A stretch of 64,000 nt of DNA from an uncultured bacterium (GTDB lineage: Bacteria; RBG-13-66-14). The stretch covers positions 523-64,522 of the forward strand of contig CAYTCV010000006.1 of the NCBI GenBank assembly GCA_964436465.1, given 5' to 3'. How positions within the stretch are numbered: the stretch's first letter is position 1; each line of letters starts with the position of its first letter. Position numbers and translations under genes: made by a program. Under the pieces are notes generated by a model. That model did not search any database and was not told the DNA's origin. It was given only the letters and a program-made list of their open reading frames with translations. Positions 4,822-35,852 of the stretch are shown here, piece by piece.

Positions 4822-4943
4822 TCCCCCTACTCACGGGTGGGGTTGAAACGGGCGGGTGTGGACACCTGCCCCTACGTCATCGCAAATAGGGGCGCGGATT
4901 GACGTGAAAAACGGCGGGGACTGAAGTCCCCGCCCTACATTTA
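4822..4943. repeat. REP-like palindromic repeat cluster (locus 1)
   Basis: Hairpins GGGCGGGTGTGGACACCTGCCC and GGCGGGGACTGAAGTCCCCGCC, flanked by CCCCTACGTCATCGCA and CCCTACATTT. The same modules recur at five other intergenic loci. Confidence 0.6.
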
Positions 4944-5004: not shown

Positions 5005-5754
5005 TTACCGGCCCAACTCGGCGTCGCGCTCCTGGTTCCAGGTGACCCACTCGTCCAGCTCCAGCTCGTCTTCGGGGGAGAACTCCCCGGAGGCGGCCAC
5101 GGAGCCGTCGGGCGCGATGTAGAGCTGCTGCATCCCGCCGAGGATGACCTGCTTCCACTGGTCCTCGGACACCTCGACCGGCCCGGAGACCTCGTGGGGA
5201 CCTTCGACCTCATACCGCTCACCGGTCCCACCCCCGCCCTCGGTGCCTTCGGTCTCCCAGAACATGGGGCCCTCGATGGCGGCCATGGGATTCCACAACT
5301 CCACGCTGCCTTCGTAAACGCGCAACAGGGTCGAGGTGTCGGGGTAGACGTCCGTGCGGAAGACTGTACCCCGGCACGCCGCCGTGGCGGTAGGCGTCTT
5401 GACGACGTAGTTGCTGGCGGGGTCGGCGAAGGGGGTGACGGTGGACCACAGCCGGCCGCCGGTGGAGGAGACCACCGTGCTGGTGGCCAGCCCGCTGGTG
5501 GACGCCCGCTCGATGGTCAGGTCGGAGTTGGACGAGAGGCGGACGAGGGAGCCGTCGTCGAAGACGATTTCCGTCCGGGAGCGGTCCCCGGTGTGGACGA
5601 TGTCCCCGCCCTTGAGGCGCGAGCCGAGGGAGGCCGTGAAGCTCGACCCGCCGCGGAAGACGCTCACGCTTCCCACCATGTACGTGACCTCCGCCCCGGC
5701 AAGGGCGACGGTGATGAGCATCGCACAGAGGAGCACAAAAACCCGTTTTGTCAT
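5005..5754 (-). CDS. FecR-domain secreted protein
   Basis: Signal peptide MTKRVFVLLCAMLITVALAGA. Motif DGSLVRLSSNSDLTIE...TPTATAACRGTVFRTDV matches the FecR domain pattern. It is the last gene of the envelope operon. Confidence 0.65.
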   Translation of the reverse strand: MTKRVFVLLCAMLITVALAGAEVTYMVGSVSVFRGGSSFTASLGSRLKGGDIVHTGDRSRTEIVFDDGSLVRLSSNSDLTIERASTSGLATSTVVSSTGGRLWSTVTPFADPASNYVVKTPTATAACRGTVFRTDVYPDTSTLLRVYEGSVELWNPMAAIEGPMFWETEGTEGGGGTGERYEVEGPHEVSGPVEVSEDQWKQVILGGMQQLYIAPDGSVAASGEFSPEDELELDEWVTWNQERDAELGR

Positions 5755-5768
5755 CGTTACCCCCGCCG

Positions 5769-6536
5769 TTACAGTTCCTGCACGGCCAGTTGTCCGGGCT
5801 GGAATCCGCCGCCGGATATGGGCTCGGCCAGTGATTCACCCGGTCCCACGCTCTCGATTCTCACGCTGCCGATTCGGTTCCCCCGCTCCCCCCGGACCTC
5901 CGACGGCGCGTAGATGACGAAGATGTCTCCCGGGGCGGCGTTTTCATCGAAGCCGATGGGCAGGATGACCCTGTCCCCCTCCACGTCTATTATGCGACCC
6001 GACCAGGGCGTTTTCTCGAAGTCTGGCGCCAGGTCATCCGCCAGCTTGTCCACGGCTCCCTGGGAGGCTCTTCCTTCCAGGGTGCCCAGGAACTCCGCGT
6101 TGGGTCCGATGACCATGCCGGGGTGCCAGCGGTTCGTGTTGCTCTGGGCGAGGAGCTGCTCGGTCTGGGTCTCGGTGATGAACTCGCCGGTGGGTGCCAG
6201 ATACAGCCGTACTTCCAGACTGACCTCCGCCTCGTCCCGGCGGAAGCCCACTTCACCAAAATTTTCCGAAAGCCCGAAGGTGTGGACATCGCCGATGAGG
6301 TATATCTGGACGCCGAGGTTCCGCAGTTGAGCCGGGAGAGTCAACACCGGTCGAGCCAGGGAGCCCGGTTCCCGGTACTCCGTCCCCAGGGCCACGGTCC
6401 CCCCGAGCGCGACGACCAGGTCCCTCCGGGTGAGCGGTACGATTCCGGGCAGCTCGCCGAGTTTTTGGGCGAGCATCTCCTCCAGGCCGCGGGCCTGCTC
6501 CTCGGTCACCTCGAGCCCGGGCCGCAGGTCGACCAC
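5769..6536 (-). CDS. CsgG-family (curli secretion channel-like) protein, paralog B; true start uncertain and may lie upstream near 6610
   Basis: Similar to the neighbouring CsgG-like gene (LVVALGGTV..., GFDENAAPGDIFVIY). The reading frame stays open upstream of the annotated GTG and encodes ...TIALLSLTGCIFTQTATAPT, a lipobox LTGC, but no canonical start codon precedes it. Confidence 0.5.
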   Translation of the reverse strand: MVDLRPGLEVTEEQARGLEEMLAQKLGELPGIVPLTRRDLVVALGGTVALGTEYREPGSLARPVLTLPAQLRNLGVQIYLIGDVHTFGLSENFGEVGFRRDEAEVSLEVRLYLAPTGEFITETQTEQLLAQSNTNRWHPGMVIGPNAEFLGTLEGRASQGAVDKLADDLAPDFEKTPWSGRIIDVEGDRVILPIGFDENAAPGDIFVIYAPSEVRGERGNRIGSVRIESVGPGESLAEPISGGGFQPGQLAVQEL

Positions 6537-6732
6537 CAGTAGCCGGTCGAGCGTCGGTGCGGTTGCAGTCTGGGTGAAGATGCAGCCCGTCAGGGACAGT
6601 AGCGCGATTGTACCGTAAAATCTTCGCGTAGGTGCGACCCGTGTTACGTCTTTACCGTCGCAGGAATCCGGCCGTAAAGCGGGGCGGGAGGAATACGCCC
6701 GGCCCGCCCCGCCTTCAGTCCAAGGGTCCGGG

Positions 6733-7650
6733 TTAATCGAACGGGTTCTCCCGGACGATGTCCCCGTCGGAGAAACCGCCCCCGGCCACGGCTCGGCCGA
6801 TGGCGTACTTCTCCTTGACCTCCATTATCTGCACGGTGCCGATGAGGGTTTCCTCGGCGCCCAGGGAGATGCCGGTGACGGGGTCGATGAGCTCCTCGCC
6901 CTTCTGGTAGACGCGGAACTCCATGCCGGTCTCGATGCCGGAGTCCATGCCGGCGTTGATGTAGACCTTCTCGCCGTCGGCCTTGACCACGGCTCCGGTC
7001 CAGGGCACGTCCTTCATCTTGATGACGATGGCGTTGACGATTTCGTCGATGGCCTGCCGGGCGGCCTTCCCCTCCAGGGTGTTGTCCCACTCGGAGCCCT
7101 TGCCGATGACCATACCCGGGACCATCAGCACACCGCCGGCCTCCGATTCCTCGCCGGTGGCCTCGTGGCTGAAGATGATTTCGCCGGTGACGGTGTCGAT
7201 GATGCGGATGTTGAGGCCGACGCGGGCGGTGACGCGGGAGATGCCGAGACCGCCCATGAAGGTGCCGAGGCCGACCTCATCCTTCTGGGTGGAGAACTCG
7301 GTGACGGCGCCGTAGACGATGGCCTGCACGCCGAGGAGCTTGCCGATTTCGGGGGCGGTCTGGGGAGTCACCAGGCCGGTGGTGCCCAGGGCCTGCTCCT
7401 CCATGACCGTGGCCAGTTGCTGGCGCTCGAACACCTGGAACTTGCCGCAGTTGACCAGGGCGGTGGTCAGCACGTCGGCCAGGCCGGTCCCGACGTTGTA
7501 GGAACTGCCGGCTTTGTCCTCCAGCTCGGACACGGCTATGCGCTTGCGCATATCCATGGCCGAGGAGGAGAGGGCCAGGACGAGCACGAGGACCAGGGTC
7601 GTGAGAACGATTTTGCTAGGAGCATAGCTCGCTTTGCTCGGTTTACGCAT
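6733..7650 (-). CDS. CsgG-family protein, paralog A (OM lipoprotein/channel-like)
   Basis: Signal peptide, then RIAVSELEDKAG....GLADVLTTALVNCGKFQVFERQQLATVMEEQAL....LLGVQAIVYGAVTEF. This matches the CsgG N-terminal pattern (R[IV]AV..F......G.......L...L...G.F.V.ER). Confidence 0.65.
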   Translation of the reverse strand: MRKPSKASYAPSKIVLTTLVLVLVLALSSSAMDMRKRIAVSELEDKAGSSYNVGTGLADVLTTALVNCGKFQVFERQQLATVMEEQALGTTGLVTPQTAPEIGKLLGVQAIVYGAVTEFSTQKDEVGLGTFMGGLGISRVTARVGLNIRIIDTVTGEIIFSHEATGEESEAGGVLMVPGMVIGKGSEWDNTLEGKAARQAIDEIVNAIVIKMKDVPWTGAVVKADGEKVYINAGMDSGIETGMEFRVYQKGEELIDPVTGISLGAEETLIGTVQIMEVKEKYAIGRAVAGGGFSDGDIVRENPFD

Positions 7651-7733
7651 GAAACGCCTCCAGGCCTAGTTGAAAAGGTTCAAGGCTTCGCCGTCGCGGA
7701 ACTCGTTCGGTCGGCGCGGCGGGGCCGTCCGTA

Positions 7734-8957
7734 TTATTCCTCCGGGGGCGGGGTCTCACCCTTGGGGGCGATGGCTATGTCAATCGTGCTGCGCGTCTGG
7801 CCGTAAACGATGACCTCGAAATCGCCCTCGGCGTGCGGCTTGATGTTGATTTCCTTGGCGATTTGGGCCGCGTCGTAATCCGAGGCGATTTCCAGCTTGG
7901 CCGTGAGGCCGAAGTGGCTGCGCACGATGATGTTCTCCACGCCGCGGACGTTCTCGCGGAGCCAGGCTTCGAGCTTGGTCAGGGTGGCGTTGTCGGCGTT
8001 GTAGACGGTCATCTGCACCGTGGAGCCGGTGGCCGCGCGACGGGACCAGTCCTTGAGAATCTGGGCGATGACGACGTCCGCGGCGGACTTGGCCGCCTTG
8101 CGCAGCGCCTCGTTGCCGCCGGCCAGGTCGTCGGTGTGGGCCGTCTTGTCGGACTTGGAGGTGGAGGCGATGAGCGCGGCGGTGTCCGTCTCGTAGACCT
8201 TGATGTTGCAGGTGGCCTGGTAGGATTTCATCCCCGAGCTGGCGGTGACGCCGTAGGCCACGATAGGGGAACTCTTGACCACGGCCTTGCCGGTGAGCAC
8301 GTACTCGGCCCCGTATTGGAGGCCGATTTCGGCGGCCGCCAGGGGGTCGCCGGTGAGGGCGGCCTTGACCATGTCGCGGTCGATGTTACGGCGCGCCTGG
8401 TCGGCGTCCACCAGCGGGAAATCCTTGTCGAGGAAGATTTCCTGGAGCGTCATCTCGGTGGTGCCCATGTCGAGGGAATCGTACCAGTAGTAGTGGTAGT
8501 TGTAGCCCTCCAGCAGGTTCTCCTCCTCGACGATGATCATTATCCGCGGGTTGCCGATGAGGGCCGTAATGGTCCGGACGTCGAGCTCGTCGAGCTTGGC
8601 CTGGAGCATGCTCCGCGCGATGGTGCACTCAATCTCGACCTCGTAGGAATTCTCGAAGGAGCCGTAGCCCTCGGAGATGATGCGGTAGTCGAGGACGTAG
8701 GCCGTGGCCCGGGCGTAGATGGAGTCATCCAGGGTCTCGAACATCTCCACCATGGTCTGGGAATCAACGAACATGCCGGTCTGCTGCTCGACGGCGTTCC
8801 GGATGGCATCCTTGACGGCGTCATCCTTGGCTTTGGCGATGTCGCCCGAGTAGATGACGCCGAGGCCGGTGCTCCGGACGGTGACGGTGTCCTGGGCCTG
8901 GACCGCACCGGTCAGCACCAGAACCGCTGTGAGCAATATGAGGGGGAATGTACGCAT
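7734..8957 (-). CDS. Secreted protein with N-terminal LPP20/FlgP-like domain (408 aa from MRTFPL start)
   Basis: The ORF-table start at 9047 overlaps the upstream gene; the internal ATG at 8957 gives signal peptide MRTFPLILLTAVLVLTGAVQA. The N-terminal domain TGLGVIYSGDIAKAKDDAVKDAIRNAVEQQTGMFVDSQTMVE shows the LPP20-family alanine-periodic pattern. Confidence 0.5.
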   Translation of the reverse strand: MRTFPLILLTAVLVLTGAVQAQDTVTVRSTGLGVIYSGDIAKAKDDAVKDAIRNAVEQQTGMFVDSQTMVEMFETLDDSIYARATAYVLDYRIISEGYGSFENSYEVEIECTIARSMLQAKLDELDVRTITALIGNPRIMIIVEEENLLEGYNYHYYWYDSLDMGTTEMTLQEIFLDKDFPLVDADQARRNIDRDMVKAALTGDPLAAAEIGLQYGAEYVLTGKAVVKSSPIVAYGVTASSGMKSYQATCNIKVYETDTAALIASTSKSDKTAHTDDLAGGNEALRKAAKSAADVVIAQILKDWSRRAATGSTVQMTVYNADNATLTKLEAWLRENVRGVENIIVRSHFGLTAKLEIASDYDAAQIAKEINIKPHAEGDFEVIVYGQTRSTIDIAIAPKGETPPPEE

Positions 8958-9056
8958 CGTAACTCCTCGGCCGTTGGGCGGTGCGTCCGCCCCCAGGTTA
9001 AAATGCTTCGGGGGACGGCCGGGCCGGACGGCTGAGCCGTCCCCCAATGGTAAATC

Positions 9057-10193
9057 CTAGTAATGGGCGAGAATCGTCTCCACGGTCCGCACGGCGTTCA
9101 CGGCGTCGGTGCCGGTGATGAAGTCCAGCGGCCGGAAGAAGCCGTCGGGGTCGCCGGCCAGAATCCCCCGGCTGGTGCAGGCGACGATGGCGCCATAGGC
9201 GAAGTTGTCCGCCCGGACGTCCTTGAAGATGCTCTCGGCGGAGATGGCCCGGGTCATGAGGTCGGGGTCGCCCGTGGTCAGGGACAACACCTTGGCGGCC
9301 AGCATGGCGAACTCGGAGCGGTTCAGCTTGGCGTCGGGCAGGAAGCTGCCGTCGGGGTAGGGCTCCATGAGGCCGGTCTCGATGCAGAGGTTGATTTCGT
9401 TCAGGGCCCAGTTCTCGGCGATGTCGGTGGCGTAGTAGGCGGTGGCGCCCGTATCGGGCTCACCGGGGCCGACGAAGGTCGGTCCGCCGTAGCTCGTCAC
9501 CGACCGGCGCTCCAGACGCGACAGGTCGAGCTCGCGCGCGAAGAGGGCCGCCGCGTCGGCGCGGCTGATGCGGTAGTTGAACGCGATGGCCCGGTAGTTC
9601 TGGTCGTCAACGCCCTGCATGAGCCGCCGGGCCAGGGCCAGGCGGTCCCAGGCGTCCTGAACCTCGGGATTCGTCGGGTCGAGCTCGTTGGCGCGCTTGA
9701 GGGCGTAATCGGCCTCATCCCAGTCGCCGACGCATCCGGCGGCGATACCCCACCAGAGCGCGCCCTCGATGTTCTCCTTGTCCTCCTGAGCCGCGGCCTT
9801 GGCCAGCAGGCGCGCGTTGCGGGCGTCGCCCTGCTCTATCATGACGCGGGCCTTGCCGATTTTGCCGTAGATGTCGTCCACGTCGTAGCCCATCGCCTTC
9901 TCGAACATGTCCACCGCATCATTCAGGAGATTCTTGCGGGTCTCGCCGGTGGCGTCCTCGCTCTGGCGCAGGTAGACGTAGCCGATGCCGGAGTAGGCGG
10001 CGGCGCAGCGGTGGTCGAGGTCTATGGCCTTCTCGAAGGCGGCGAGGGCGGCGTCGTACTGGCGGTTCTCCAGGTACTTGTGACCGGCCGCCACGTGGGT
10101 TTCCGGCGTGTCCATAGCGGTTTCGCCCTTTTTGCAACCCGCCGCGAACATGACCAGGGCGATGATGGCAAACCCTATAATAAGCTTTTTCAT
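9057..10193 (-). CDS. TPR-repeat lipoprotein with two C-terminal SLH domains
   Basis: Start MKKLIIGFAIIALVMFAAGC (lipobox). TPR-like repeats follow (AAYSGIGYVYLRQ..., ALWWGIAAGCVGDWDEADYALKRANELDP). Two SLH-like segments end the protein (DGSFLPDAKLNRSEFAMLAAKVL and NFAYGAIVACTSRGILAGDPDGFFRPLDFITGTDAV). Confidence 0.65.
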   Translation of the reverse strand: MKKLIIGFAIIALVMFAAGCKKGETAMDTPETHVAAGHKYLENRQYDAALAAFEKAIDLDHRCAAAYSGIGYVYLRQSEDATGETRKNLLNDAVDMFEKAMGYDVDDIYGKIGKARVMIEQGDARNARLLAKAAAQEDKENIEGALWWGIAAGCVGDWDEADYALKRANELDPTNPEVQDAWDRLALARRLMQGVDDQNYRAIAFNYRISRADAAALFARELDLSRLERRSVTSYGGPTFVGPGEPDTGATAYYATDIAENWALNEINLCIETGLMEPYPDGSFLPDAKLNRSEFAMLAAKVLSLTTGDPDLMTRAISAESIFKDVRADNFAYGAIVACTSRGILAGDPDGFFRPLDFITGTDAVNAVRTVETILAHY

Positions 10194-10219
10194 CGTAATC
10201 CCTTCGTCTGAAAAGTTGC

Positions 10220-11032
10220 CTAAAGGACGATGGTCACCCGGCAGTCGGAGATACCGTTCACGTAGGGTATCTTCGAGCCGTCGGGATTGCTGACCACCAG
10301 GTCGCACTTAGCGGCGCCGGTGACGCTGACCGCCCGGATGACTATGGGGTTGGTGCCGACGCGGTCACCGCCCCGGGCCTCGTCCACGCTGCGCGCGTAG
10401 CCGACTATGCCCACGGACACGGCGTAATCGCGGCTCACGTTCATCGGGCCGTAGAGCACGTCGCCGGACTGGTTGACGATTTTCGGGCTCATGGCGGGCA
10501 TGGCGCCCAGGCCCGAGGCGTCGATGATGAGGCCCGTGTTCTCGCCGCCGCCGGGATGGACCGTGGTGTTGTAGGGGTCCGTCAGAACTGCGTCGGCCAG
10601 TTGGCCGTCCAGGCTGATGGCGAAGGTGCGCTCGATGGAGCCGTCGCTCATGTAGCGGGGGCTGCCCACCTCGTACGCACCCTGAACGACGCCGGAAACG
10701 CGGGCGATGATGGTGTCGTCCACCGTCTCGAAGTTCTGGATGGTGGTGGTGGAGTTGATTTGGACGCCCTTGACCTGCTCGAGGAGGTCACGCAGGGCGA
10801 CGATTTTGGCGGCTCGCATGGCGTTGGCGCGTTCCCGGGCCGCGTTGACCGGGTTGTCGGAGACGACGCCGATGCCGGTGGCCGAGATGGTCCGCTCGCC
10901 CCAGTTCGTGATGCCTACTCCGCCCCTGTCCTGGGGGGTCTGCGGCTCGTAGGTCGTGCGCTGGACACCGGCCCAGTCCTGGGCCAGGACCAGGACCGGG
11001 AGGAGCACCAAAAGCGTTAAAAGTTTCTTCAT
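10220..11032 (-). CDS. LPP20/FlgP-family lipoprotein-like secreted protein
   Basis: Signal peptide MKKLLTLLVLLPVLVLAQDWAG, then ISATGIGVVSDNPVNAARERANAMRAAKIVALRDLLEQVKGVQINSTTTIQNFETVDD (LPP20 pattern). It is the first gene of the operon; a promoter region lies at 11033-11216. Confidence 0.55.
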   Translation of the reverse strand: MKKLLTLLVLLPVLVLAQDWAGVQRTTYEPQTPQDRGGVGITNWGERTISATGIGVVSDNPVNAARERANAMRAAKIVALRDLLEQVKGVQINSTTTIQNFETVDDTIIARVSGVVQGAYEVGSPRYMSDGSIERTFAISLDGQLADAVLTDPYNTTVHPGGGENTGLIIDASGLGAMPAMSPKIVNQSGDVLYGPMNVSRDYAVSVGIVGYARSVDEARGGDRVGTNPIVIRAVSVTGAAKCDLVVSNPDGSKIPYVNGISDCRVTIVL

Positions 11033-11216
11033 CTCTACCCTCCTGGGTGGCTTCCGCCCGACGCCCGCGGGGTCGGGACTTGTATTATCGAAAAAAAGTG
11101 GCAGAACGTTGCCTTGCGCTCAAATTGGATAAGTATAGCAGGAACCGGTGTCTATTACAATACGGATTTGAAATCGCTTTACAAGGCGCCGGGGCTGTGC
11201 TATAAGTGATTCTCAG

Positions 11217-12408: not shown

Positions 12409-13893
12409 TCAATCCAGTCGCAACAGCGCCTCGCGGGCCGACTGGGCCACGTTCTCATCCGCGTCCGCGGCCAGCTTGTCCAGGTAGGGCTTGGCCTCGG
12501 GAACGGCCATCTCGCCCAGGGCGATGGCCACGGCCTGGCGCACCTCGGGGCGCTCGTCGGCGGCCAGGGCCGCCACCTTCTCGAAGGCCACGGCGGGCAT
12601 ATTTCCCAGGGCCACGGCGGCGTTCTCCCGCAGGATTTTAACCTCTTGGGTCAGATTCTCCAGAAGCTTGGGCAGGGCCGCCGCCTGCAGGTCCCGGTTC
12701 TGGGTGTAGCCGAAGAACCAGATGGCGAAGGCGCGGAGCTTGGGGTCGGGGTCCGAGAGCCTGGCCAGCAGGAGCTTTGTCGCCGGAGCGCCGTTGGCTT
12801 CGAGCATGTCCGCCGCGGTCTCGCGCAGGTCGGGGTACTTCAGCGCGTCGAAGAGCGCGGTGATGGCCTTGGCGGTGCCGATATGACCCAGAGATTGCAG
12901 GGCCACCTTCTTGACGTCCGGCCCCGCGTACTCCGAGGTGTCGGCCAGGATGTCCACCAGGGCCGAGGTGGCCTCGGTGAGGCCCAGATAGCCCAGGTAG
13001 TGGGTGCACATCACCTGCAAGGCCTTGTCCTCGCTCTCGCGCTTGGTTATAAGGGCGTTGATGGCATTCATCTTGAGCTGTCCGAACACGCGCTGGGTGA
13101 CCTCCAGCGCCGCGTTGGAGGCGGTGTCGGCCTGGAGGGCTTCCAGGTACGTGGGGGGCGGCTTCTGGAGCGACTGGAGGCTCATGGTGATGTACTTGCG
13201 CGGGATGGAGTTCTCGTTGCCGATGCGGTTCAGGAAGCGCCCCACGCTGTCGATTTTCGTGTCGACGAAATCCTCGGCCGGGTTGGGCGTGAAACCTTGG
13301 ATGGCGGCGGTAACCTCGTTATAGAGGGGCATCTTCGGGTTGGCGAAGGCCAGCATGGCCTTATAGAAGCTCTCCCGCTCGTACTCGGCCAGGGCGGCGT
13401 TCAGCGGGCCGACGGACGGCTCGCCGATGGCGACCAGGGCGCGGCTCGCCGCGGTGCGCCGGTCCTCGGCCGTGTTGTAGAGGTCCGTGTCGTCCAGTTC
13501 CTCGGGGACAAAGCCGAGGGCGCGAATCAGCGGCTGCACCGCCTGCTCACCGAACTGGACCAGGCTGCGTCCCGCCTGGCGGCGCACCTCGGGGTCCGGG
13601 TCGTCGAGGACCTGGACCAGGATGTCGATGGAGTCGGGATTTTGGAAGAAGCCGAGTCCGCCCGCTGCCCTGGCCCGGATTTGCGGGTCATCGCTCGTAT
13701 CCTCCAGGACGCCGTGCAGATGGGCGACGGCCTCCGGGTCGCCGGTGGCGATGAGGTCTTCCACCGCCGCCAGGCGCATTTCCGGGTCGTTGCCCTTGTC
13801 CTCAAGGTCGGCCACCGCGCCGGACAGGCTGGGTCCACCGCAGCCCGTGAGCAGAAAAACGAGGGACAGCGCCAGAACCAGACACCGCGCCAT
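12409..13893 (-). CDS. HEAT/PBS-lyase-repeat lipoprotein
   Basis: Internal start MARCLVLALSLVFLLTGC (lipobox). HEAT-like repeats follow (DPEMRLAAVEDL, DPQIRARAAGGLG, DPEVRRQAGRSL, DPKLRAFAIWFFG, RPEVRQAVAIALG). Confidence 0.7.
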   Translation of the reverse strand: MARCLVLALSLVFLLTGCGGPSLSGAVADLEDKGNDPEMRLAAVEDLIATGDPEAVAHLHGVLEDTSDDPQIRARAAGGLGFFQNPDSIDILVQVLDDPDPEVRRQAGRSLVQFGEQAVQPLIRALGFVPEELDDTDLYNTAEDRRTAASRALVAIGEPSVGPLNAALAEYERESFYKAMLAFANPKMPLYNEVTAAIQGFTPNPAEDFVDTKIDSVGRFLNRIGNENSIPRKYITMSLQSLQKPPPTYLEALQADTASNAALEVTQRVFGQLKMNAINALITKRESEDKALQVMCTHYLGYLGLTEATSALVDILADTSEYAGPDVKKVALQSLGHIGTAKAITALFDALKYPDLRETAADMLEANGAPATKLLLARLSDPDPKLRAFAIWFFGYTQNRDLQAAALPKLLENLTQEVKILRENAAVALGNMPAVAFEKVAALAADERPEVRQAVAIALGEMAVPEAKPYLDKLAADADENVAQSAREALLRLD

Positions 13894-14021
13894 GGATGCT
13901 CCTTGTAGGAAGGTGACAGTGGACCGGATAAAGCTATCACAATGCGGAACCGTTGTAAAGCCTGGCCGCCCCCGGACCGATTCCCGGAACTTCCGCCTGT
14001 ATTCGGGTATAATTCCCCCGG

Positions 14022-14684
14022 ATGAGAAAAACGGTCCTCTATATTCTGCTGTTCCTCGCAATCGTCGCGGTCCGGGCGGCCGAGCCCCCGGCGGTCTTCA
14101 CCATCGCCCGGCTGCACTACGGCGGCGGCGGGGACTGGTACTCCGACCCCAGCTCCCTGCCCAACCTGTTGAAGTACCTCCACGATTCGACGGGGCTGGA
14201 GGTCACCTCCGACGACGTCGTGGTGGAACCCTCGGCCCCCGAGCTCTTCGACTACCCCTACCTCTACCTCACCGGTCACGGCAACGTCAGCTTCACCCCC
14301 CTGGAGTTGGAGCAGCTCCGGAGCTATCTGGACGGGGGCGGTTTCCTCCACATTGACGACAACTACGGCCTGGACCCCTACATCCGCCGCGAAATCGCGC
14401 GGCTCTATCCCGACGAGGAACTCGTCCTGCTCCCCTTCGACCACCCCATCTACCACTGCTTTTTCGACTTCCCCCAGGGGCTGCCCAAGGTCCACGAGCA
14501 CGACGGCGAGCCGCCCCAGGGCTACGGCATCTTCCGGAACGGCCGGCTCGTCCTGTTCTACACCCATGAATGCGACCTGGGCGACGGCTGGGAGGACCCC
14601 GAGGTGCACAAGGACCCGCCGGAAATCCGCGAGGCGGCCCTCAAGATGGGCGTCAACATCATCATCTACGCCCTGACCCACTGA
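14022..14684 (+). CDS. Secreted protein, possible DUF4159-like
   Basis: Signal peptide MRKTVLYILLFLAIVAVRA; contains the motif RLHYGGGGDWYSDPSSLPNLL. The family assignment is from memory only. Confidence 0.45.
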   Translation: MRKTVLYILLFLAIVAVRAAEPPAVFTIARLHYGGGGDWYSDPSSLPNLLKYLHDSTGLEVTSDDVVVEPSAPELFDYPYLYLTGHGNVSFTPLELEQLRSYLDGGGFLHIDDNYGLDPYIRREIARLYPDEELVLLPFDHPIYHCFFDFPQGLPKVHEHDGEPPQGYGIFRNGRLVLFYTHECDLGDGWEDPEVHKDPPEIREAALKMGVNIIIYALTH

Positions 14685-14700
14685 GCTTGAAGGATGCGTC

Positions 14701-15414
14701 ATGCCCAAAGCGAAGACGGACGAAGTCTGCCCCATCTGCGGTAGAAGGCTTCCCCGCGCCGAACTGGTGTCGGGGGAGGCGGTGCGGCCCAGCCTGGTGG
14801 AGCTCATTAAAAAGGACCATCCCGACTGGGACCCGTCCCAGACCATCTGCAGCGACGACCTCAACCGCTACCGGGCGCTCTACGTGGAACGCCTGATTGC
14901 CAGCGACCTCGGCGAGCTCACCGAGTTGGAGGCCAACGTCGTGCGCAGTCTGACCTACCAGGAGCTGTTGAGCAAGGACGTCAACGAGGAGTTCGAGGGC
15001 AAGCTGACATTCGGCCAGCGGACGGCGGACAAATTAGCCTCCTTCGGCGGGAGTTGGCGCGTCATCATCATCTTCTTCACGCTTCTCCTGGGGTGGATTG
15101 GTCTGAACGCCTTTCTGCTCCTCTCGCGCCCCTTCGACCCCTACCCCTTCATCCTGTTGAACCTGGTGCTCTCCTGCCTGGCGGCCATCCAGGCGCCCAT
15201 AATCATGATGAGCCAGAACCGCCAGGCCGCCAAGGACCGCCTGCACTCCCAGCGCGACTACGAGGTCAATCTCAAGAGCGAAATCGAGATTCGCTCCCTG
15301 GGCGAGCGACTGGACCACATCATCCACCACCAGTGGCAGCGCCTGCTGGAAATCCAGGAGGTCCAGACGGACCTGATGGAGGAACTGGTCAAGCTGAAGG
15401 GGCAGAAAAAATAA
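14701..15414 (+). CDS. DUF1003-like membrane protein with N-terminal CxxC..C zinc-ribbon-like segment
   Basis: N-terminal motif VCPICGRR. Core segment ADKLASFGGSWRVIIIFFTLLLGWIGLNA...PFDPYPFILLNLVLSCLAAIQAPIIMMSQNRQAAKDR matches my recollection of DUF1003. Confidence 0.5.
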   Translation: MPKAKTDEVCPICGRRLPRAELVSGEAVRPSLVELIKKDHPDWDPSQTICSDDLNRYRALYVERLIASDLGELTELEANVVRSLTYQELLSKDVNEEFEGKLTFGQRTADKLASFGGSWRVIIIFFTLLLGWIGLNAFLLLSRPFDPYPFILLNLVLSCLAAIQAPIIMMSQNRQAAKDRLHSQRDYEVNLKSEIEIRSLGERLDHIIHHQWQRLLEIQEVQTDLMEELVKLKGQKK

Positions 15415-30610: not shown

Positions 30611-31714
30611 TCAGAGCCGTCGTCTCCGCCCCGCGTGCCGTCCGGCGGTCCGGGCCGTCGGTTCCGCCACGCGGGGGGAGTCGTCCATGCCGTCTTCGTA
30701 AATGTGCCGGACGATGCTCTCGATTTTCGGCTCGCTGATGGTCAGGTCGAGGACGGTCAGGCGGGCCAGGCAGGCGGCGATGACCTCCTTGGCCGTCGTC
30801 TCCTTCGGGTCGAAGCCCACCGACAGTCCGTTGTGCTCCCCCAGCCGCACCTCGAGGGCCTCGCGGGGGATGACGAGGGCGTCGGCCAATTCCGCGGCAT
30901 CCAACGACGCCGGGCCGTCCGTATCCAGGTACACGACCCGTCGGCGGCCGAAGGTTTTCTTGAACTCCGCCAGCGGCCCGTCGTAGATGATTCTTCCCCG
31001 GTCGATGATGATGATGCGCTTCGCCAGCCGCTCGATGTCCGCCAGGTCGTGGGTGGTGAGCATGACGGTCGTTTTGCGCTCGGTGGCCACGTGGGACAGG
31101 AACTCCCGGATGCGCTGCTTCACCGATACATCGAGACCGATGGTGGGCTCGTCCAGGTACACGACCCGGGGATTGTGCAACAGGGTCCCGGCCAGCTCGC
31201 ACCGCACCCGCTGGCCCAGGGAGAGCTTGCGCACCGGCAGGCGCAGCAGGTTCCCCAGCTCCAGCACCTCGACGAAGAAGTCCAGGTTCTTCCTGAACTC
31301 GTCGCGGGGGACCTCGTAGATTTTCTCCAGCAGCCGGTAGCTCTCCTGGACGGCGATGTCCCACCAGAGCTGGGAGCGCTGGCCGAACATGACGCCGATT
31401 TCCCGGGCGTTGGCCACGCGCTGGCGGTGGGGGTCCCGCCCGAGGACGCGGCAGGTTCCTTCCGTGGGGCGGATGATGCCGCAGAGCATCTTGATGGTGG
31501 TGGACTTGCCCGCGCCGTTGGGGCCGATGTATCCCAGGAGCTCTCCGGGCTGGACGGTGAATTCCACCCCGTCCACGGCCCGGACCTCTTCGTACTCGCG
31601 CTTGAAGAGGTTGACGATGGCGCCGCCTATTCCGGCCCGGCGCCGGAACACGCGGAAGACCTTGGTCAGCCCGCGGGCTTCGATGACCGGACCGTCGGTC
31701 GGCTGTTCGGGCAT
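30611..31714 (-). CDS. ABC transporter ATP-binding protein with ~120-aa C-terminal extension
   Basis: Walker A GPNGAGKST, signature LSLGQRVR, Walker B VVYLDEPTIGLD. The internal ATG at 31714 is used, preceded by 16 extra codons in the table ORF. Confidence 0.85.
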   Translation of the reverse strand: MPEQPTDGPVIEARGLTKVFRVFRRRAGIGGAIVNLFKREYEEVRAVDGVEFTVQPGELLGYIGPNGAGKSTTIKMLCGIIRPTEGTCRVLGRDPHRQRVANAREIGVMFGQRSQLWWDIAVQESYRLLEKIYEVPRDEFRKNLDFFVEVLELGNLLRLPVRKLSLGQRVRCELAGTLLHNPRVVYLDEPTIGLDVSVKQRIREFLSHVATERKTTVMLTTHDLADIERLAKRIIIIDRGRIIYDGPLAEFKKTFGRRRVVYLDTDGPASLDAAELADALVIPREALEVRLGEHNGLSVGFDPKETTAKEVIAACLARLTVLDLTISEPKIESIVRHIYEDGMDDSPRVAEPTARTAGRHAGRRRRL

Positions 31715-31842
31715 AGGGAAAAACCTCGCCGCTCCCTCGATTGATGGTCCATTGTACCGCAAAGGGGCGGGCTAATCCAACACGACGAACGGGAGGGTCG
31801 GGTGACCCTCCCGCATCACATCAACAATCCGCCGCGGATACC

Positions 31843-33378
31843 CTACTTAATCGGAATCGGGAACGGATACGCCGGGGCGGGGCGGTGGGGCATGACGCAG
31901 GCCGGCGCCGAGGCCGTCCCGCCCTGGAACGGCTCCAGGAGGTAATCGGCGAAGGTGAAGGGCGTCAGCGACTTGGGGTCGGAGTATTTCTGCGCCAGGT
32001 CGCAGGCGAAATCCCCGGCCACGCCGACGTCGAAGGCGACCAGCATCAGCTCCTCCACCCTGGGCAGCCCCCAGGCGAAGAGGTCGCCCTCCAGGGTCAC
32101 GCTTTGGCCGGGCGCCAGTTGAGCGGGCAGTTTGACCCCCGTTTTCGTTACTATGGGTTTACCCTCGCCGCGGAAGACCCAGCAGCGCAGGCCCTTGGCG
32201 GTGTCCAGGGACCGCGGCTCCGCGGCGTGGTTGGTGATATTCACCTTGACCTGGTACGACGCGTCGAAGGGGATGGCGAAGGCCGGGTCGGGAAGCACCA
32301 GTTCCACCCCGCCCACCGGGCCGGTGCGGTAGGGGTACGGCAGCGGGTCCGGCTTGGGGTAATTCGCGAAATCGCCGAAGGCCTTCTTCTCCTCGGGGGT
32401 GTACTTCGCGTCCACGTGCCATCCGGCGCGCAGAAGCGCGGTCAGGCCGAGGTAGTCCGGTCCCTGCTCCTTGGCGATGTGCTCCTGGCCGAATTCCATC
32501 CGCCGGCGCACGTAGGGCCGGTAGAAGGCCTCGTCCATCTCCCAGCCGTTGAACTCCTTCGAGTAACCCAGCAGGACGTGGATTTTCTGTCGCTGCTCCT
32601 CGGTGTGCATGTGGGGCCACAGGAGGTACTCGCCCAGGGCGTCGGTGAAGCAGGTGAAGGGCAACAGGGCGTTCTGGCGCCGGGCCAGCGTCAGCTCGTT
32701 CTCCAGGGAATTTTTGTTCAGGGCGTAGACCACGTTCGTCGGGAAGGGGTAGTCCCGGGTGATTTCCAGGGCGTTCAGGGCCCAGGTAATCATGTCGGGC
32801 TGGTGGTGGGTGATTTCGACGTTGAAGGAATTCAGGTTGGCGTCCCAGGTGGCCGCCTGGCCCAGATGGTCCTGATACCCCTCGGCGAGACTTCTCCGGT
32901 TGAACTCGGGGATGGTTTTGCACTCCTCGGCCAGGGCGAAGAACGCCTCGTAGGCCTGCTTCTGATGGGGAAGCTGGTCGTTGTCCCTGACCCCGGTGTT
33001 GTAGGCCATGCGGTGCGGCTTGAGAACGATTTCCAGGTCGGTGATGTCCAGCGTCTTCAAGTCGACCGGCTTTAAATCCTTCTCCGCCTGCTCCATCTCG
33101 GCGATTTTGGAGTCCATGCCGGCTTCCTGGACCTCGGAAATCTTGACCATGGCCTGGCCGTACTTCTCCATGAGCCCCTCGGACTGCATCCGGTCCTGGA
33201 ACTTGATGATGTCCATCCCCGGCTCGTTGCCGATGGCCTCCATGCGGGCGATGACCTCGCGCACCGGCTCCAGCAGGCTCTTGTCGGAAATCATGGACGA
33301 CTGGGCGTCCAGGCCCATCTTCATCCCGTCCACCATCTGTTTGACCGCCGCGTCCATCAGTACCTCCCCCCGAGACAC
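31843..33378 (-). CDS. Hypothetical protein, 511 aa (helical N-terminal half, beta-rich C-terminal half)
   Basis: No recognised motif. Overlaps the upstream gene by 22 nt. Confidence 0.55.
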   Translation of the reverse strand: MSRGEVLMDAAVKQMVDGMKMGLDAQSSMISDKSLLEPVREVIARMEAIGNEPGMDIIKFQDRMQSEGLMEKYGQAMVKISEVQEAGMDSKIAEMEQAEKDLKPVDLKTLDITDLEIVLKPHRMAYNTGVRDNDQLPHQKQAYEAFFALAEECKTIPEFNRRSLAEGYQDHLGQAATWDANLNSFNVEITHHQPDMITWALNALEITRDYPFPTNVVYALNKNSLENELTLARRQNALLPFTCFTDALGEYLLWPHMHTEEQRQKIHVLLGYSKEFNGWEMDEAFYRPYVRRRMEFGQEHIAKEQGPDYLGLTALLRAGWHVDAKYTPEEKKAFGDFANYPKPDPLPYPYRTGPVGGVELVLPDPAFAIPFDASYQVKVNITNHAAEPRSLDTAKGLRCWVFRGEGKPIVTKTGVKLPAQLAPGQSVTLEGDLFAWGLPRVEELMLVAFDVGVAGDFACDLAQKYSDPKSLTPFTFADYLLEPFQGGTASAPACVMPHRPAPAYPFPIPIK

Positions 33379-34007
33379 TCGGCGTTGACCCGCTCGAATA
33401 TCTCCACCAGCCGCTTTATCTGCGCGTCGTCGAAGGTGAAGCGTTCGCGAATCCAGGGGAGCTGCATCAGGTCGGGGAAGCGTTTTCCGGGGTTGCGCTC
33501 GGCGAGCTCCTTCAGCCCGGCCTCCAGCTTGGTCTGGACGCTCTCGGAGAGCTCGGAGCCCGGCTTGGCGGCGCTGATATAGAACACGTTCTCCACGCTT
33601 TCGTCCATCAGGGTTTTCGTGCGGCTGACTTTTTCCAACAGCTTCGACTCGTCCGCGGCGAACTTGGTGGCGATGGAGTCGATTTCGTTGAAATCCGCGG
33701 CTTTGGAGATGGCCTCGGCCTTGGCGTTCCCGCTTCCGGCCAGCTCTACCAGCTTCAGCTCGGCGTAGATTTCCGCCTGGAAGCGGGCGCCGTCCACCGC
33801 CATGGCCCGGCCGAGCCGGAAGGAAAATCCGCCCTCCATGAACTGCCGGTTCATCTCGAGGAGGTCCGGCGTTTTCTTGACCATCTCCAGGGTTTCGGCG
33901 TCCGCCTTCACTGCCTCTCTTGCGTGGGGGTCCTTCTTGCGGGCCTCCAGCGTCAGGCGGTAATACTCGATGGTGTCGGCGTGCGCCTGAGCGTCGAAAC
34001 CGGCCAT
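33357..34007 (-). CDS. Hypothetical helical protein, 216 aa
   Basis: Ala/Glu/Lys-rich predicted alpha-helical cytoplasmic protein, downstream of the XpaC-like pair. Confidence 0.5.
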   Translation of the reverse strand: MAGFDAQAHADTIEYYRLTLEARKKDPHAREAVKADAETLEMVKKTPDLLEMNRQFMEGGFSFRLGRAMAVDGARFQAEIYAELKLVELAGSGNAKAEAISKAADFNEIDSIATKFAADESKLLEKVSRTKTLMDESVENVFYISAAKPGSELSESVQTKLEAGLKELAERNPGKRFPDLMQLPWIRERFTFDDAQIKRLVEIFERVNAECLGGRY

Positions 34008-34008
34008 A

Positions 34009-34254
34009 TCAACGGCCCTCGCTGATGGCGGTGTTCATCTCGGCCAGGGCGGCGGCATACTCGTTGTTCAGGTTCGTCTGCTGCATCTGGGTGTTGAAAG
34101 CCGCCATCGTGGCGCCGTGCTCCTGGGCCACGGCGTTGACCTTCGCCATCACGGCGCGGGCCTTTTCGAGGGGAGCCTTGTCCTTCAGGCGGTTGCCCTG
34201 GGCCTCGATGCTCATCTGCCAGGCGTCCACCATCGCTTTTACCTGCGGGTCCAT
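34009..34254 (-). CDS. Small hypothetical protein, 81 aa
   Basis: MDPQVKAMVDAWQMSIEAQGN...; tightly packed, with a 2-nt gap to the downstream gene. Confidence 0.4.
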   Translation of the reverse strand: MDPQVKAMVDAWQMSIEAQGNRLKDKAPLEKARAVMAKVNAVAQEHGATMAAFNTQMQQTNLNNEYAAALAEMNTAISEGR

Positions 34255-34279
34255 GAGTCTCCTTTCGAATTATCCGATA

Positions 34280-35041
34280 CTAAAGCTCTTCCCGGTCGAA
34301 CTCCTCCTGGGTCGCGGTCAGGCACTTGCTCCAGTCGCGCAGGTCGTCCACCAGGGAGGTGATGGGGGAGAAATCCACCTGTGTTCCGGACCCCGCGGTT
34401 CCGAACTCCTGCGCCACCTCGCTCTCCAGCTCGAAGGCCTCCAGGCGGTTCGAGGCCTCGGCCAGACGCCCCACCAGCCCGGCGAAGTCGTTGGTGCGTT
34501 CGACCAGGTTGGTTATAAGACGCCAGGCCTTTTCCACCAGGGGCTTCGAGTCGATGTCCCGGGCCCGCTCGTAGAACTGGTACACCTTGTCCTGGCGCAG
34601 CCACTCGCCGGCCAGGGCCAGGGCGCCGGAGTAAACTTCCTCCACCAGTGGCTTGAGCTCCGCCGGCTTCGTGTCTATTTCCTTGAAGCGCCGGACGACC
34701 GTTTCGTAGCCCGTGGCGATGGCTTTGAACCGAGGACCCTCGGCATTTCTGCCGATTCTTTCGTTGAAGGCCTTCCACCGCTGTTGGACTTCCCCATAGA
34801 GCATATCCACCGCCAGGATGCGGTCCGACGTAACCTTCGCGAAAACGATGAGCACGGCGATTATCGCGGCGCCGACCGTCCCCACGGCGACCCACAAGCT
34901 TTCCAGAAAGATGAAACCCATGTAACCGATGAAGAGAGCCATGGGGAGGAGGGACAGCGGTGCGGTCAGCTTTTTGCGCTTCTCCTCGTCCCGGTACAGC
35001 CGATGCCGGATGACCTTGCGCAGTCGGGCGGTGTTACTCAA
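34280..35041 (-). CDS. XpaC-like membrane protein, paralog B
   Basis: About 30 aa N-terminal region, two TM helices (LSLLPMALFIGYMGFIFLESLWVAVGTVGAAIIAVLIVFA), then a helical domain with LAGEWLRQDKVYQFYERARDIDSKPL. About 45% identical to the upstream paralog. Confidence 0.6.
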   Translation of the reverse strand: MSNTARLRKVIRHRLYRDEEKRKKLTAPLSLLPMALFIGYMGFIFLESLWVAVGTVGAAIIAVLIVFAKVTSDRILAVDMLYGEVQQRWKAFNERIGRNAEGPRFKAIATGYETVVRRFKEIDTKPAELKPLVEEVYSGALALAGEWLRQDKVYQFYERARDIDSKPLVEKAWRLITNLVERTNDFAGLVGRLAEASNRLEAFELESEVAQEFGTAGSGTQVDFSPITSLVDDLRDWSKCLTATQEEFDREEL

Positions 35042-35087
35042 GGCCTTGCTCTCCTGTGTGTTGCCTGCCGTCCGAGCGTGGAATCTG

Positions 35088-35852
35088 CTACAGGGCCTCG
35101 CGGTCCAGCTCCTCCTGAGCCCGGTTCAGGCAGGTGCCCCATTCGCGCAGGTCCCCGACCAGGGCGTCCAGTTGCGCGAAATCGGGCGCGGGAGTCTCTC
35201 CGGAATCACCGAGCTCCCCGGGCATCTCGCTGCTGAGCTCGAAGACCTGCACGCGGTTCACGGTGTCGTCGAGGCGTTCCAGCAGCCCGGCGAAACCGTT
35301 CGTGCGGTCGATGAGGTCGTCTATGAGCCGTCGGGCCTTGTCCTTCAGGGGCTGGGAGTTTATGTCACGGGCCCGCTCGTAGAACTTATACACCTTGTCC
35401 TGGCGCAGCCATTCACCGGCCAGCCGGACGCCGCAGTCGTAAACCTCGTCCACCGCCGACAGGAGCCCGGCGGGCCCCCCGCCGACCTCCTTCAGCCGGC
35501 CCGCCACCTTGGCGATGCCGTCGGAGATGTCCTTCAGACGCACGCCTTCGGGTTTCGTGCCCACCCTCTTATTGAACTCCTCCCAGCGCTCGCGGGCCTC
35601 GTCGTAGAGGTAGCCCGCGACGAGGGACCGGTCCCCGTAAATGAGCCTGTGGTTTATCAACAGGGCGATGACCCAGGCGGCGGCCACTCCCACGGCGGGC
35701 CAGACGGTCTCCAAAAAGAGGGCGGTCATATACCCGACGACGATGACCACGGGTATAATGCTTAATATGCCGATTGACCGCTTGCGCCTTTCCGGGTCCT
35801 GCGCTAAGCGGCGCCTCACTACACGGCGCAGGTTGGCGGTCAGTACGGCCAA
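35088..35852 (-). CDS. XpaC-like membrane protein, paralog A
   Basis: Same architecture; LAGEWLRQDKVYKFYERARDINSQPL is conserved. Confidence 0.6.
   Translation of the reverse strand: MAVLTANLRRVVRRRLAQDPERRKRSIGILSIIPVVIVVGYMTALFLETVWPAVGVAAAWVIALLINHRLIYGDRSLVAGYLYDEARERWEEFNKRVGTKPEGVRLKDISDGIAKVAGRLKEVGGGPAGLLSAVDEVYDCGVRLAGEWLRQDKVYKFYERARDINSQPLKDKARRLIDDLIDRTNGFAGLLERLDDTVNRVQVFELSSEMPGELGDSGETPAPDFAQLDALVGDLREWGTCLNRAQEELDREAL

Follow-up and report, generated by a model that had tools for sequence, protein, structure and literature searches.

A six-gene operon of FlgP-, FlgT- and CsgG-fold proteins with a predicted cell-wall tether: a candidate non-flagellar envelope assembly in Coatesbacteria

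The closest described systems to the locus reported here are the H-ring of the Vibrio flagellar motor (FlgT, FlgP and FlgO) and the basal disk of Campylobacter and Helicobacter, whose FlgP belongs to the LPP20 family. The beta-hairpin of FlgP is reported to be its ring-forming insert (PMC12222027), and FlgT forms a 26-mer ring that is not a pore (PMC13626733). We analysed a 64,000-nt stretch of DNA from an uncultured bacterium (GenBank assembly GCA_964436465.1, contig CAYTCV010000006.1, positions 523 to 64,522; hereafter the window), where an operon of six genes, g1 to g6 in order of transcription, has the same building blocks as the H-ring but lacks its flagellar context. Our favoured reading, to which we give about even weight, is that the operon encodes a scaffold in the periplasm, non-flagellar and probably in the shape of a ring, lying beneath the outer membrane and tethered to the cell wall. 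This reading rests on domain and fold identities, N-terminal export signals, operon structure and the linkage of the genes across phyla, and the oligomeric state, ring geometry, side of the membrane, ligand of the SLH domains and physiological role are all ones that we infer from these.

The likeness to FlgP is seen in two of the products, g1 and g3 (Table 1). Residues 46-126 of g1 match the solved FlgP chains of Vibrio and Campylobacter motors gap-free (E ~1e-5), and the alignment of residues 46-120 to C. jejuni FlgP (9HMF chain C) runs without a gap through both the helix and the beta-hairpin segment, so that g1 shares with the basal disk protein the part that includes the hairpin. At its N-terminus g3 shares homology with g1 (30% identity, E 5e-11), a profile of the g3 family matches C. 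jejuni FlgP (E 3.6e-4), and the AlphaFold2 model of g3 (predicted local distance difference test, pLDDT, 73.8) places a helix at 40-60 and then the hairpin strands 65-71 and 74-81 within the SHS2 domain. The insert described in PMC12222027 is thus found in both proteins, by gap-free alignment in g1 and by the modelled strands in g3. A reading of the DNA made earlier from sequence alone, the sequence-only reading below, had assigned an LPP20-like domain to each of them. Neither matches PF02169 (LPP20) in a Pfam search at E <= 0.1, where g1 has no match of any kind, and the assignment draws its support instead from the FlgP chains and from the homologs of g1 (259 at E <= 1e-3), as most of those of about 40% identity among the matches listed carry PF02169.

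Both proteins also depart from FlgP. FlgP is a lipoprotein of 171 aa, whereas g1 has 270 residues, no lipid anchor and a second domain, and the signal peptides of g1 and g3 end in ...LAQD and ...VQAQD without the cysteine on which anchoring of the FlgP type depends. The extra C-terminal domain of g1 (10220-10540 in the window) is strongly conserved, with the motifs TGLIIDA..GLG..PAMSPKI, VYG and G.VGY. It is better kept across phyla than the FlgP-like domain, has an invariant C-terminal cysteine and is without a Pfam model. The sole lead to its identity is a weak similarity to the N-terminal unit of Tp0624 of T. pallidum (E 1.4e-4), the part concerned being probably the D2 domain of that protein.

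Beyond its SHS2 domain the model of g3 shows a middle and a C-terminal alpha/beta domain. In Pfam, g3 passes DUF6175 (PF19672) marginally (24.4 bits, cut-off 23) and matches FlgT_N weakly, below threshold (19.5 bits, cut-off 28.8); a single-sequence search of the PDB with g3 found nothing. The NCBIfam model for LipL46 aligns over 300 residues (E 8e-14), but with 51 bits against an equivalog cut-off of 400, and g3 is therefore a remote homolog rather than an equivalog; g6 is likewise a remote match to LipL45 (E 9e-17, 61 bits, equivalog cut-off 350). These Leptospira proteins have been described as antigens or adhesins only, and so provide no mechanism; they are also lipoproteins, which g3 and g6 are not. 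The g3 family is large, with 1,136 clusters (50% identity) at E <= 1e-30. Contigs of metagenome-assembled genomes encode proteins 98% and 91% identical to g3, the latter from Candidatus Coatesbacteria RBG_13_66_14, and several metagenome assemblies from JGI and SRA (Logan) contain proteins identical to g4.

The second fold is that of g4, which is related to both CsgG and FlgT. Its Pfam CsgG domain (PF03783) is significant (E 7e-34, 117.3 bits, cut-off 20.8), the profile of its family matches E. coli CsgG with the first transmembrane segment (TM1) included (E 4e-13), and its C-terminal domain matches TsaP (E 1.9e-9). The model of g4 is good (pLDDT 83.4, predicted template modelling score 0.77), and in three dimensions it has the fold of FlgT, with the M and C domains of that protein as the closest overall match, though it stays below the Pfam threshold both for FlgT_M, at 27.4 against 31.2 bits, and for FlgT_C, at 21.6 against 27 bits. 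Of the two CsgG paralogs proposed by the sequence-only reading, g4 is thus supported by Pfam directly, and g5, without a Pfam match of its own, by its paralogy to g4 (29% identity over 201 aa, E 1e-23, BLASTP).

That reading had placed the two paralogs in an outer-membrane-spanning secretion pore, and a CsgG-type channel is the first alternative to be weighed. Here g4 and g5 would form a homo- or hetero-oligomeric pore whose cargo, an amyloid, an adhesin or a polysaccharide, would be encoded at another site, with g1 and g3 as periplasmic adaptors and g2 as the wall anchor. The homology of g4 to CsgG, the lipobox of g5 and the hydrophobic loops at both CsgG transmembrane positions in coatesbacterial g4 all speak for it, as does the influence on matrix production of a non-curli CsgG cluster in Acinetobacter. 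Canonical CsgG, however, is a lipoprotein whose barrel is formed by two hairpins per subunit, the second (TM2) of about 25 aa. In g4 and 35 of 37 sampled members of its family the cleavable signal has no lipobox, and the TM2-equivalent (172-185 in g4) has some 14 aa, about 11 fewer than in CsgG, is charged in most members and is not predicted as a hairpin. The defining membrane features of the channel, a lipobox in g4 and two transmembrane beta-hairpins, are thus lacking, while a C-terminal domain of FlgT-C/TsaP type is added. In structure, too, g4 matches FlgT far better than it does CsgG, and no gene resembling csgA, csgB, csgE or csgF occurs in the window or among the annotated neighbours at nine related loci. 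The Acinetobacter cluster (CsgG-DUF4810-DUF799, with DUF799 also named GNA1162; an uncharacterised cluster of Proteobacteria, found in Neisseria too) differs in that its CsgG is a lipoprotein and its partners include none of the FlgP-type, SLH or FecR proteins; the phenotype in matrix and poly-N-acetylglucosamine is known for that cluster alone. We therefore consider a secretion channel unlikely.

TsaP and PelC offer a different comparison, as wall-bound or lipoprotein periplasmic rings around outer-membrane conduits. In the operon the wall-binding SLH domains are on a separate TPR lipoprotein, and neither a secretin nor a porin of the PelB type lies in linkage with it. Polysaccharide export of the PelBC kind was considered and rejected, since there is no linked porin and glycosyltransferases occur inconsistently among the neighbours. 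A ring or scaffold is favoured over a pore because g4 has no lipobox and a short, charged TM2-equivalent, and because g1 and g3 carry the FlgP hairpin insert and FlgT is a ring that is not a pore. The sequence-only reading had mentioned the FlgO/FlgP/FlgT ring as an echo, and this part of it has proved better supported than its headline pore. As the idea of a secretion pore is unsupported, the absence of a locally encoded cargo, which that reading had also pointed out, may be moot, there being perhaps no cargo at all.

Several observations weigh against the scaffold. The model of g3 is of moderate quality only, with the hairpin itself below a pLDDT of 50. The TM1-equivalent segment of g4 is similar in length to TM1 of CsgG, and Coatesbacteria g4 has hydrophobic loops at both CsgG transmembrane positions (GLGTFMGGLGI and GVLMVPGMVIG), so that shallow membrane insertion is possible. 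Finally, g4-type genes stand alone in other phyla (Bacteroidota, TA06), which means that g4 can function without partners, and we accordingly rejected the idea that it is an obligate partner of the cluster. One such lone gene, on a 4.58-Mb contig (locus L066, 8001-13130), lies beside genes for an HtrA-like protease (Trypsin and PDZ domains), an AhpC/TSA redoxin and DsbD; this arrangement recalls PflC, an HtrA-like part of the motor scaffold in Campylobacter.

The start assigned to g5 by the sequence-only reading, at GTG 6536, is inaccurate. The in-frame stretch before it encodes a lipoprotein signal, RRFYGTIALLSLTGC (lipobox LTGC), but has no ATG, GTG or TTG start; an ACG is present where orthologs would place theirs (window 6536-6650, minus strand). 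This stretch is the same in three independent metagenome assemblies except for one synonymous CTA/CTC/CTT change inside it, and the orthologs of g5 in other Coatesbacteria have the lipobox after a canonical start (ATG, or GTG in locus L017). Since the lipobox frame is conserved across assemblies and orthologs have both start and lipobox, g5 is most likely a lipoprotein, to judge by these sequences, with a start codon that in the window is either damaged or non-canonical. The conserved frame and the synonymous change within it make a pseudogene less likely.

The remaining two products have domains confirmed by Pfam, and the sequence-only reading had named both correctly. In g2 the Pfam search finds TPR repeats and two SLH stretches (E 2e-17), SLH (PF00395) scoring 63.2 bits against a cut-off of 20.8, and the SLH region is aligned in 46 of 56 g2-like neighbours at other loci. 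With its lipoprotein signal, g2 is a predicted membrane-to-cell-wall tether. Nothing resembling the CsaB pathway of wall-polymer pyruvylation occurs within the window, which does carry a gene for an outer-membrane beta-barrel protein and one for a heptosyltransferase, indicating a diderm envelope. The FecR domain of g6 (E 3e-15, 56.7 bits, cut-off 24) is preceded only by a signal peptide; it has neither the anti-sigma domain nor the transmembrane part of a FecR anti-sigma factor, and no gene for an extracytoplasmic function sigma factor or a TonB receptor is linked. Export signals, read directly off the N-terminal sequences, are present on all six products, with a lipobox on g2 and g5.

Another alternative is a regulator or adaptor of wall synthesis or remodelling, in which LpoB- or TolB-N-like proteins would reach peptidoglycan enzymes and the SLH domains would serve in wall targeting. 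The g4 score for the Pfam LpoB family is marginally above threshold (23.1 against 22.3 bits), and Tp0624, to which the g1 C-terminal domain has its weak match, is a wall-associated treponemal protein. However, the LpoB match overlaps the far stronger CsgG match of the same fold, the lipid anchor and long linker of LpoB are absent, and no gene for a penicillin-binding protein or a hydrolase is linked. This explanation would also leave the FlgP-type hairpin domains unaccounted for, and we regard it as highly improbable.

A further line of evidence is the conservation of the cluster, of which g1-g2-g3-g4 form a core shared by Coatesbacteria, Calditrichota, Desulfobacterota and many contigs from metagenomes. 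Within the candidate phylum Coatesbacteria the six-gene order is kept wherever a locus has enough context, and g1-g2-g3-g4-g6 is found in a Calditrichaceae genome. Smaller parts occur elsewhere: g1-g2 only in a Chitinivibrionales genome, g1-g2-X-FecR on a Desulfonatronovibrionaceae contig, and, at 44 loci of Desulfobacterota, a g3-like gene with, as a rule, a CsgG/FlgO-like gene next after it. When metagenomes were scanned with g1 as the anchor, 80 loci were found, and in the 16 that reach 3.5 kb or more to each side of the g1 homolog, which we used for counting, g2 was present in 15, g3 in 14, g4 in 13, g6 in 6 and g5 in 2. Two orders are seen among these loci, g1-g2-g3-g4-(g5)-g6 and g2/g3-g1-g4, and the survival of the linkage through this rearrangement suggests that the products act together.

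Some variation around these loci was also seen. The number of CsgG paralogs differs among Coatesbacteria, with extra CsgG-domain paralogs in loci L007, L019 and L020/L021; in L007 (10855-12210) a 213-aa paralog and a 211-aa open reading frame (ORF) follow the FecR gene, and in L020/L021 a third paralog lies between g4 and g5. In the marine order g3-g1-g4 (L071-L148, e.g. L126, 1372-2184), 53 loci have a thioredoxin-like AhpC/TSA ORF after g1, and 24 (e.g. L083, 3-6812) have upstream a giant Ig/Laminin-G protein of at least 2,270 aa with a C-terminal sorting domain of the type IX secretion system. The marine-order loci may form one related clade and are thus not necessarily independent. A contig binned as 'Promethearchaeota archaeon' (L039) bears a bacterial g3-g4 pair, probably through mis-binning or contamination.

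A third alternative follows from the same relatives that support the scaffold, since the nearest solved ones, FlgP and FlgT, are both parts of flagellar motors. The operon might encode a motor accessory, the Coatesbacteria counterpart of the Vibrio H-ring or the Campylobacter basal disk, placed apart from the flagellar regulon. In Campylobacter flgP and flgQ are likewise encoded apart from other flagellar genes, and flagella are common in Desulfobacterota, where the g3-g4 pair occurs. Pfam scans of ORFs from across the window, on the other hand, found no flagellar genes, nor any for curli, pili or secretion, in line with the sequence-only reading, and the annotated neighbours at the nine related loci with Pfam-annotated genes include no flagellar or curli genes. 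Genes for FlgQ and PflA-D are not present. The FlgT architecture is divided between two genes, with every Pfam score, whether for FlgT_N, FlgT_M or FlgT_C, under gathering, g1 has its additional conserved domain and no lipid anchor, and the SLH/TPR and FecR partners are not known as motor parts. On this evidence a motor accessory is decidedly unlikely. A literature search on Coatesbacteria flagella returned only a taxonomy review.

For the wall-tethered scaffold, the parts can be put together as follows. As the ring-forming beta-hairpin is present in the FlgP-type domain of both g1 and g3, we propose that these domains would oligomerise, and that a second layer, resembling FlgT, would be made of the CsgG/FlgT-fold domains of g3, g4 and g5. 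Anchorage in a membrane leaflet would come from the lipoproteins g2 and g5, and attachment to a peptidoglycan-linked polymer from the pair of SLH domains in g2; g6, with its FecR domain, may be an accessory or adaptor subunit. The role would probably be that of stapling the envelope or of a platform for another envelope machine.

The organisation of the locus is that of a single operon (Table 1). Six ORFs run in the same direction on the minus strand between 5005 and 11032, where the sequence-only reading had put them, and the GC content at their third codon positions (0.81-0.91) is that expected of genuine genes where the sequence as a whole has 65% GC. The region upstream of g1 is, as had been noticed, richer in AT (GC 0.56 against ~0.65) and contains a sigma-70-like promoter candidate, and the ATG of g1 is preceded by a GGAGGG ribosome-binding site. 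The operon's end is marked by a strong terminator, 71 nt past the stop codon of g6. The gaps between genes, from g1 to g6 and with the ORF limits of the sequence-only reading, are 26, 99, 83, 196 and 14 nt, which corrects the spacing of 14-96 nt given there, most clearly for g4-g5. A hairpin in this longest gap starts 21 nt after the g4 stop. It was rejected as a terminator because it lacks a T-run, having only TTTAC behind the stem, and the terminator scan made no call; as an attenuator or an element of mRNA stability it might set the expression of g1-g4 against that of g5-g6.

Table 1. Genes and candidate regulatory elements of the operon, with positions in the window
Feature	Position	Strand	Description
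g1	10220..11032	-	Secreted, 270 aa, no lipobox; N-terminal FlgP/LPP20-type SHS2 domain (~46-126) and C-terminal domain (~165-270)
g2	9057..10193	-	Lipoprotein (signal ...FAAGC); TPR repeats and two C-terminal SLH domains
g3	7734..8957	-	Secreted, 407 aa, three domains
g3 domains			FlgP/FlgT-N-like SHS2 with hairpin, 24-114; CsgG/TolB-N/PelC-fold (DUF6175), ~139-310; C-terminal alpha/beta, 313-398
g4	6733..7650	-	Secreted, 305 aa, CsgG domain, no lipobox; C-terminal beta domain of FlgT-C/TsaP type
g5	5769..6629	-	Diverged g4 paralog; listed ORF 5769-6536 begins at GTG 6536
g6	5005..5754	-	Secreted, 249 aa; FecR domain 52-152; acidic C-terminal tail
Promoter candidate	11132..11160	-	Sigma-70-like TTGTAA-17-TATACT with TG; ~100 nt upstream of g1
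Hairpin between g4 and g5	6679..6712	-	Perfect 10-bp GC stem GCGGGGCGGG/CCCGCCCCGC, 14-nt loop
Intrinsic terminator	4913..4934	-	9-bp stem with 8 GC pairs, T5 tail; strong

The flanking genes are unrelated to the operon: one side has a gene for a UbiA prenyltransferase in divergent orientation, and the other, past the terminator, one for an AI-2E transporter. Just upstream of the UbiA neighbour, a 550-aa HEAT-repeat protein adjoins genes for DUF4159 and DUF1003 proteins (12409-15414). Further away, four successive minus-strand ORFs without a Pfam match (511, 216, 253 and 254 aa; 31843-35852) adjoin an ABC ATPase gene (30611-31762).

Literature searches on this cluster, on CsgG-like proteins together with LPP20, on DUF6175, and on the LPP20 family or FlgP-like and FlgT-like proteins returned no publication, which, with the lack of curli and flagellar genes nearby, agrees with the earlier suggestion of an uncharacterised envelope assembly. 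From its sequence the cluster appears to be a previously undescribed and widespread envelope assembly of FlgP/FlgT/CsgG folds, with a function deduced from its parts. It also calls for caution over the label 'curli secretion channel CsgG', which several databases give to such genes. The origin of the periplasmic FlgP/FlgT disks of Vibrio and Campylobacter is an open question, and a 2025 paper on their in-situ structure places FlgP in a 'broad family' only. As a conserved and apparently non-flagellar set of FlgP/FlgT-type parts together with a wall anchor, the operon makes this question testable. We suggest tentatively, and with some doubt, that the FlgP/FlgT-type ring module may exist as a free-standing, wall-tethered structure, in non-flagellar contexts, in Coatesbacteria, Calditrichota, Desulfobacterota and many marine uncultured lineages, and that it may stand for the type of ancestral scaffold out of which H-rings and basal disks were recruited. 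For these poorly known phyla the operon points to a possibly widespread, unstudied mode of organising or stapling the outer membrane.

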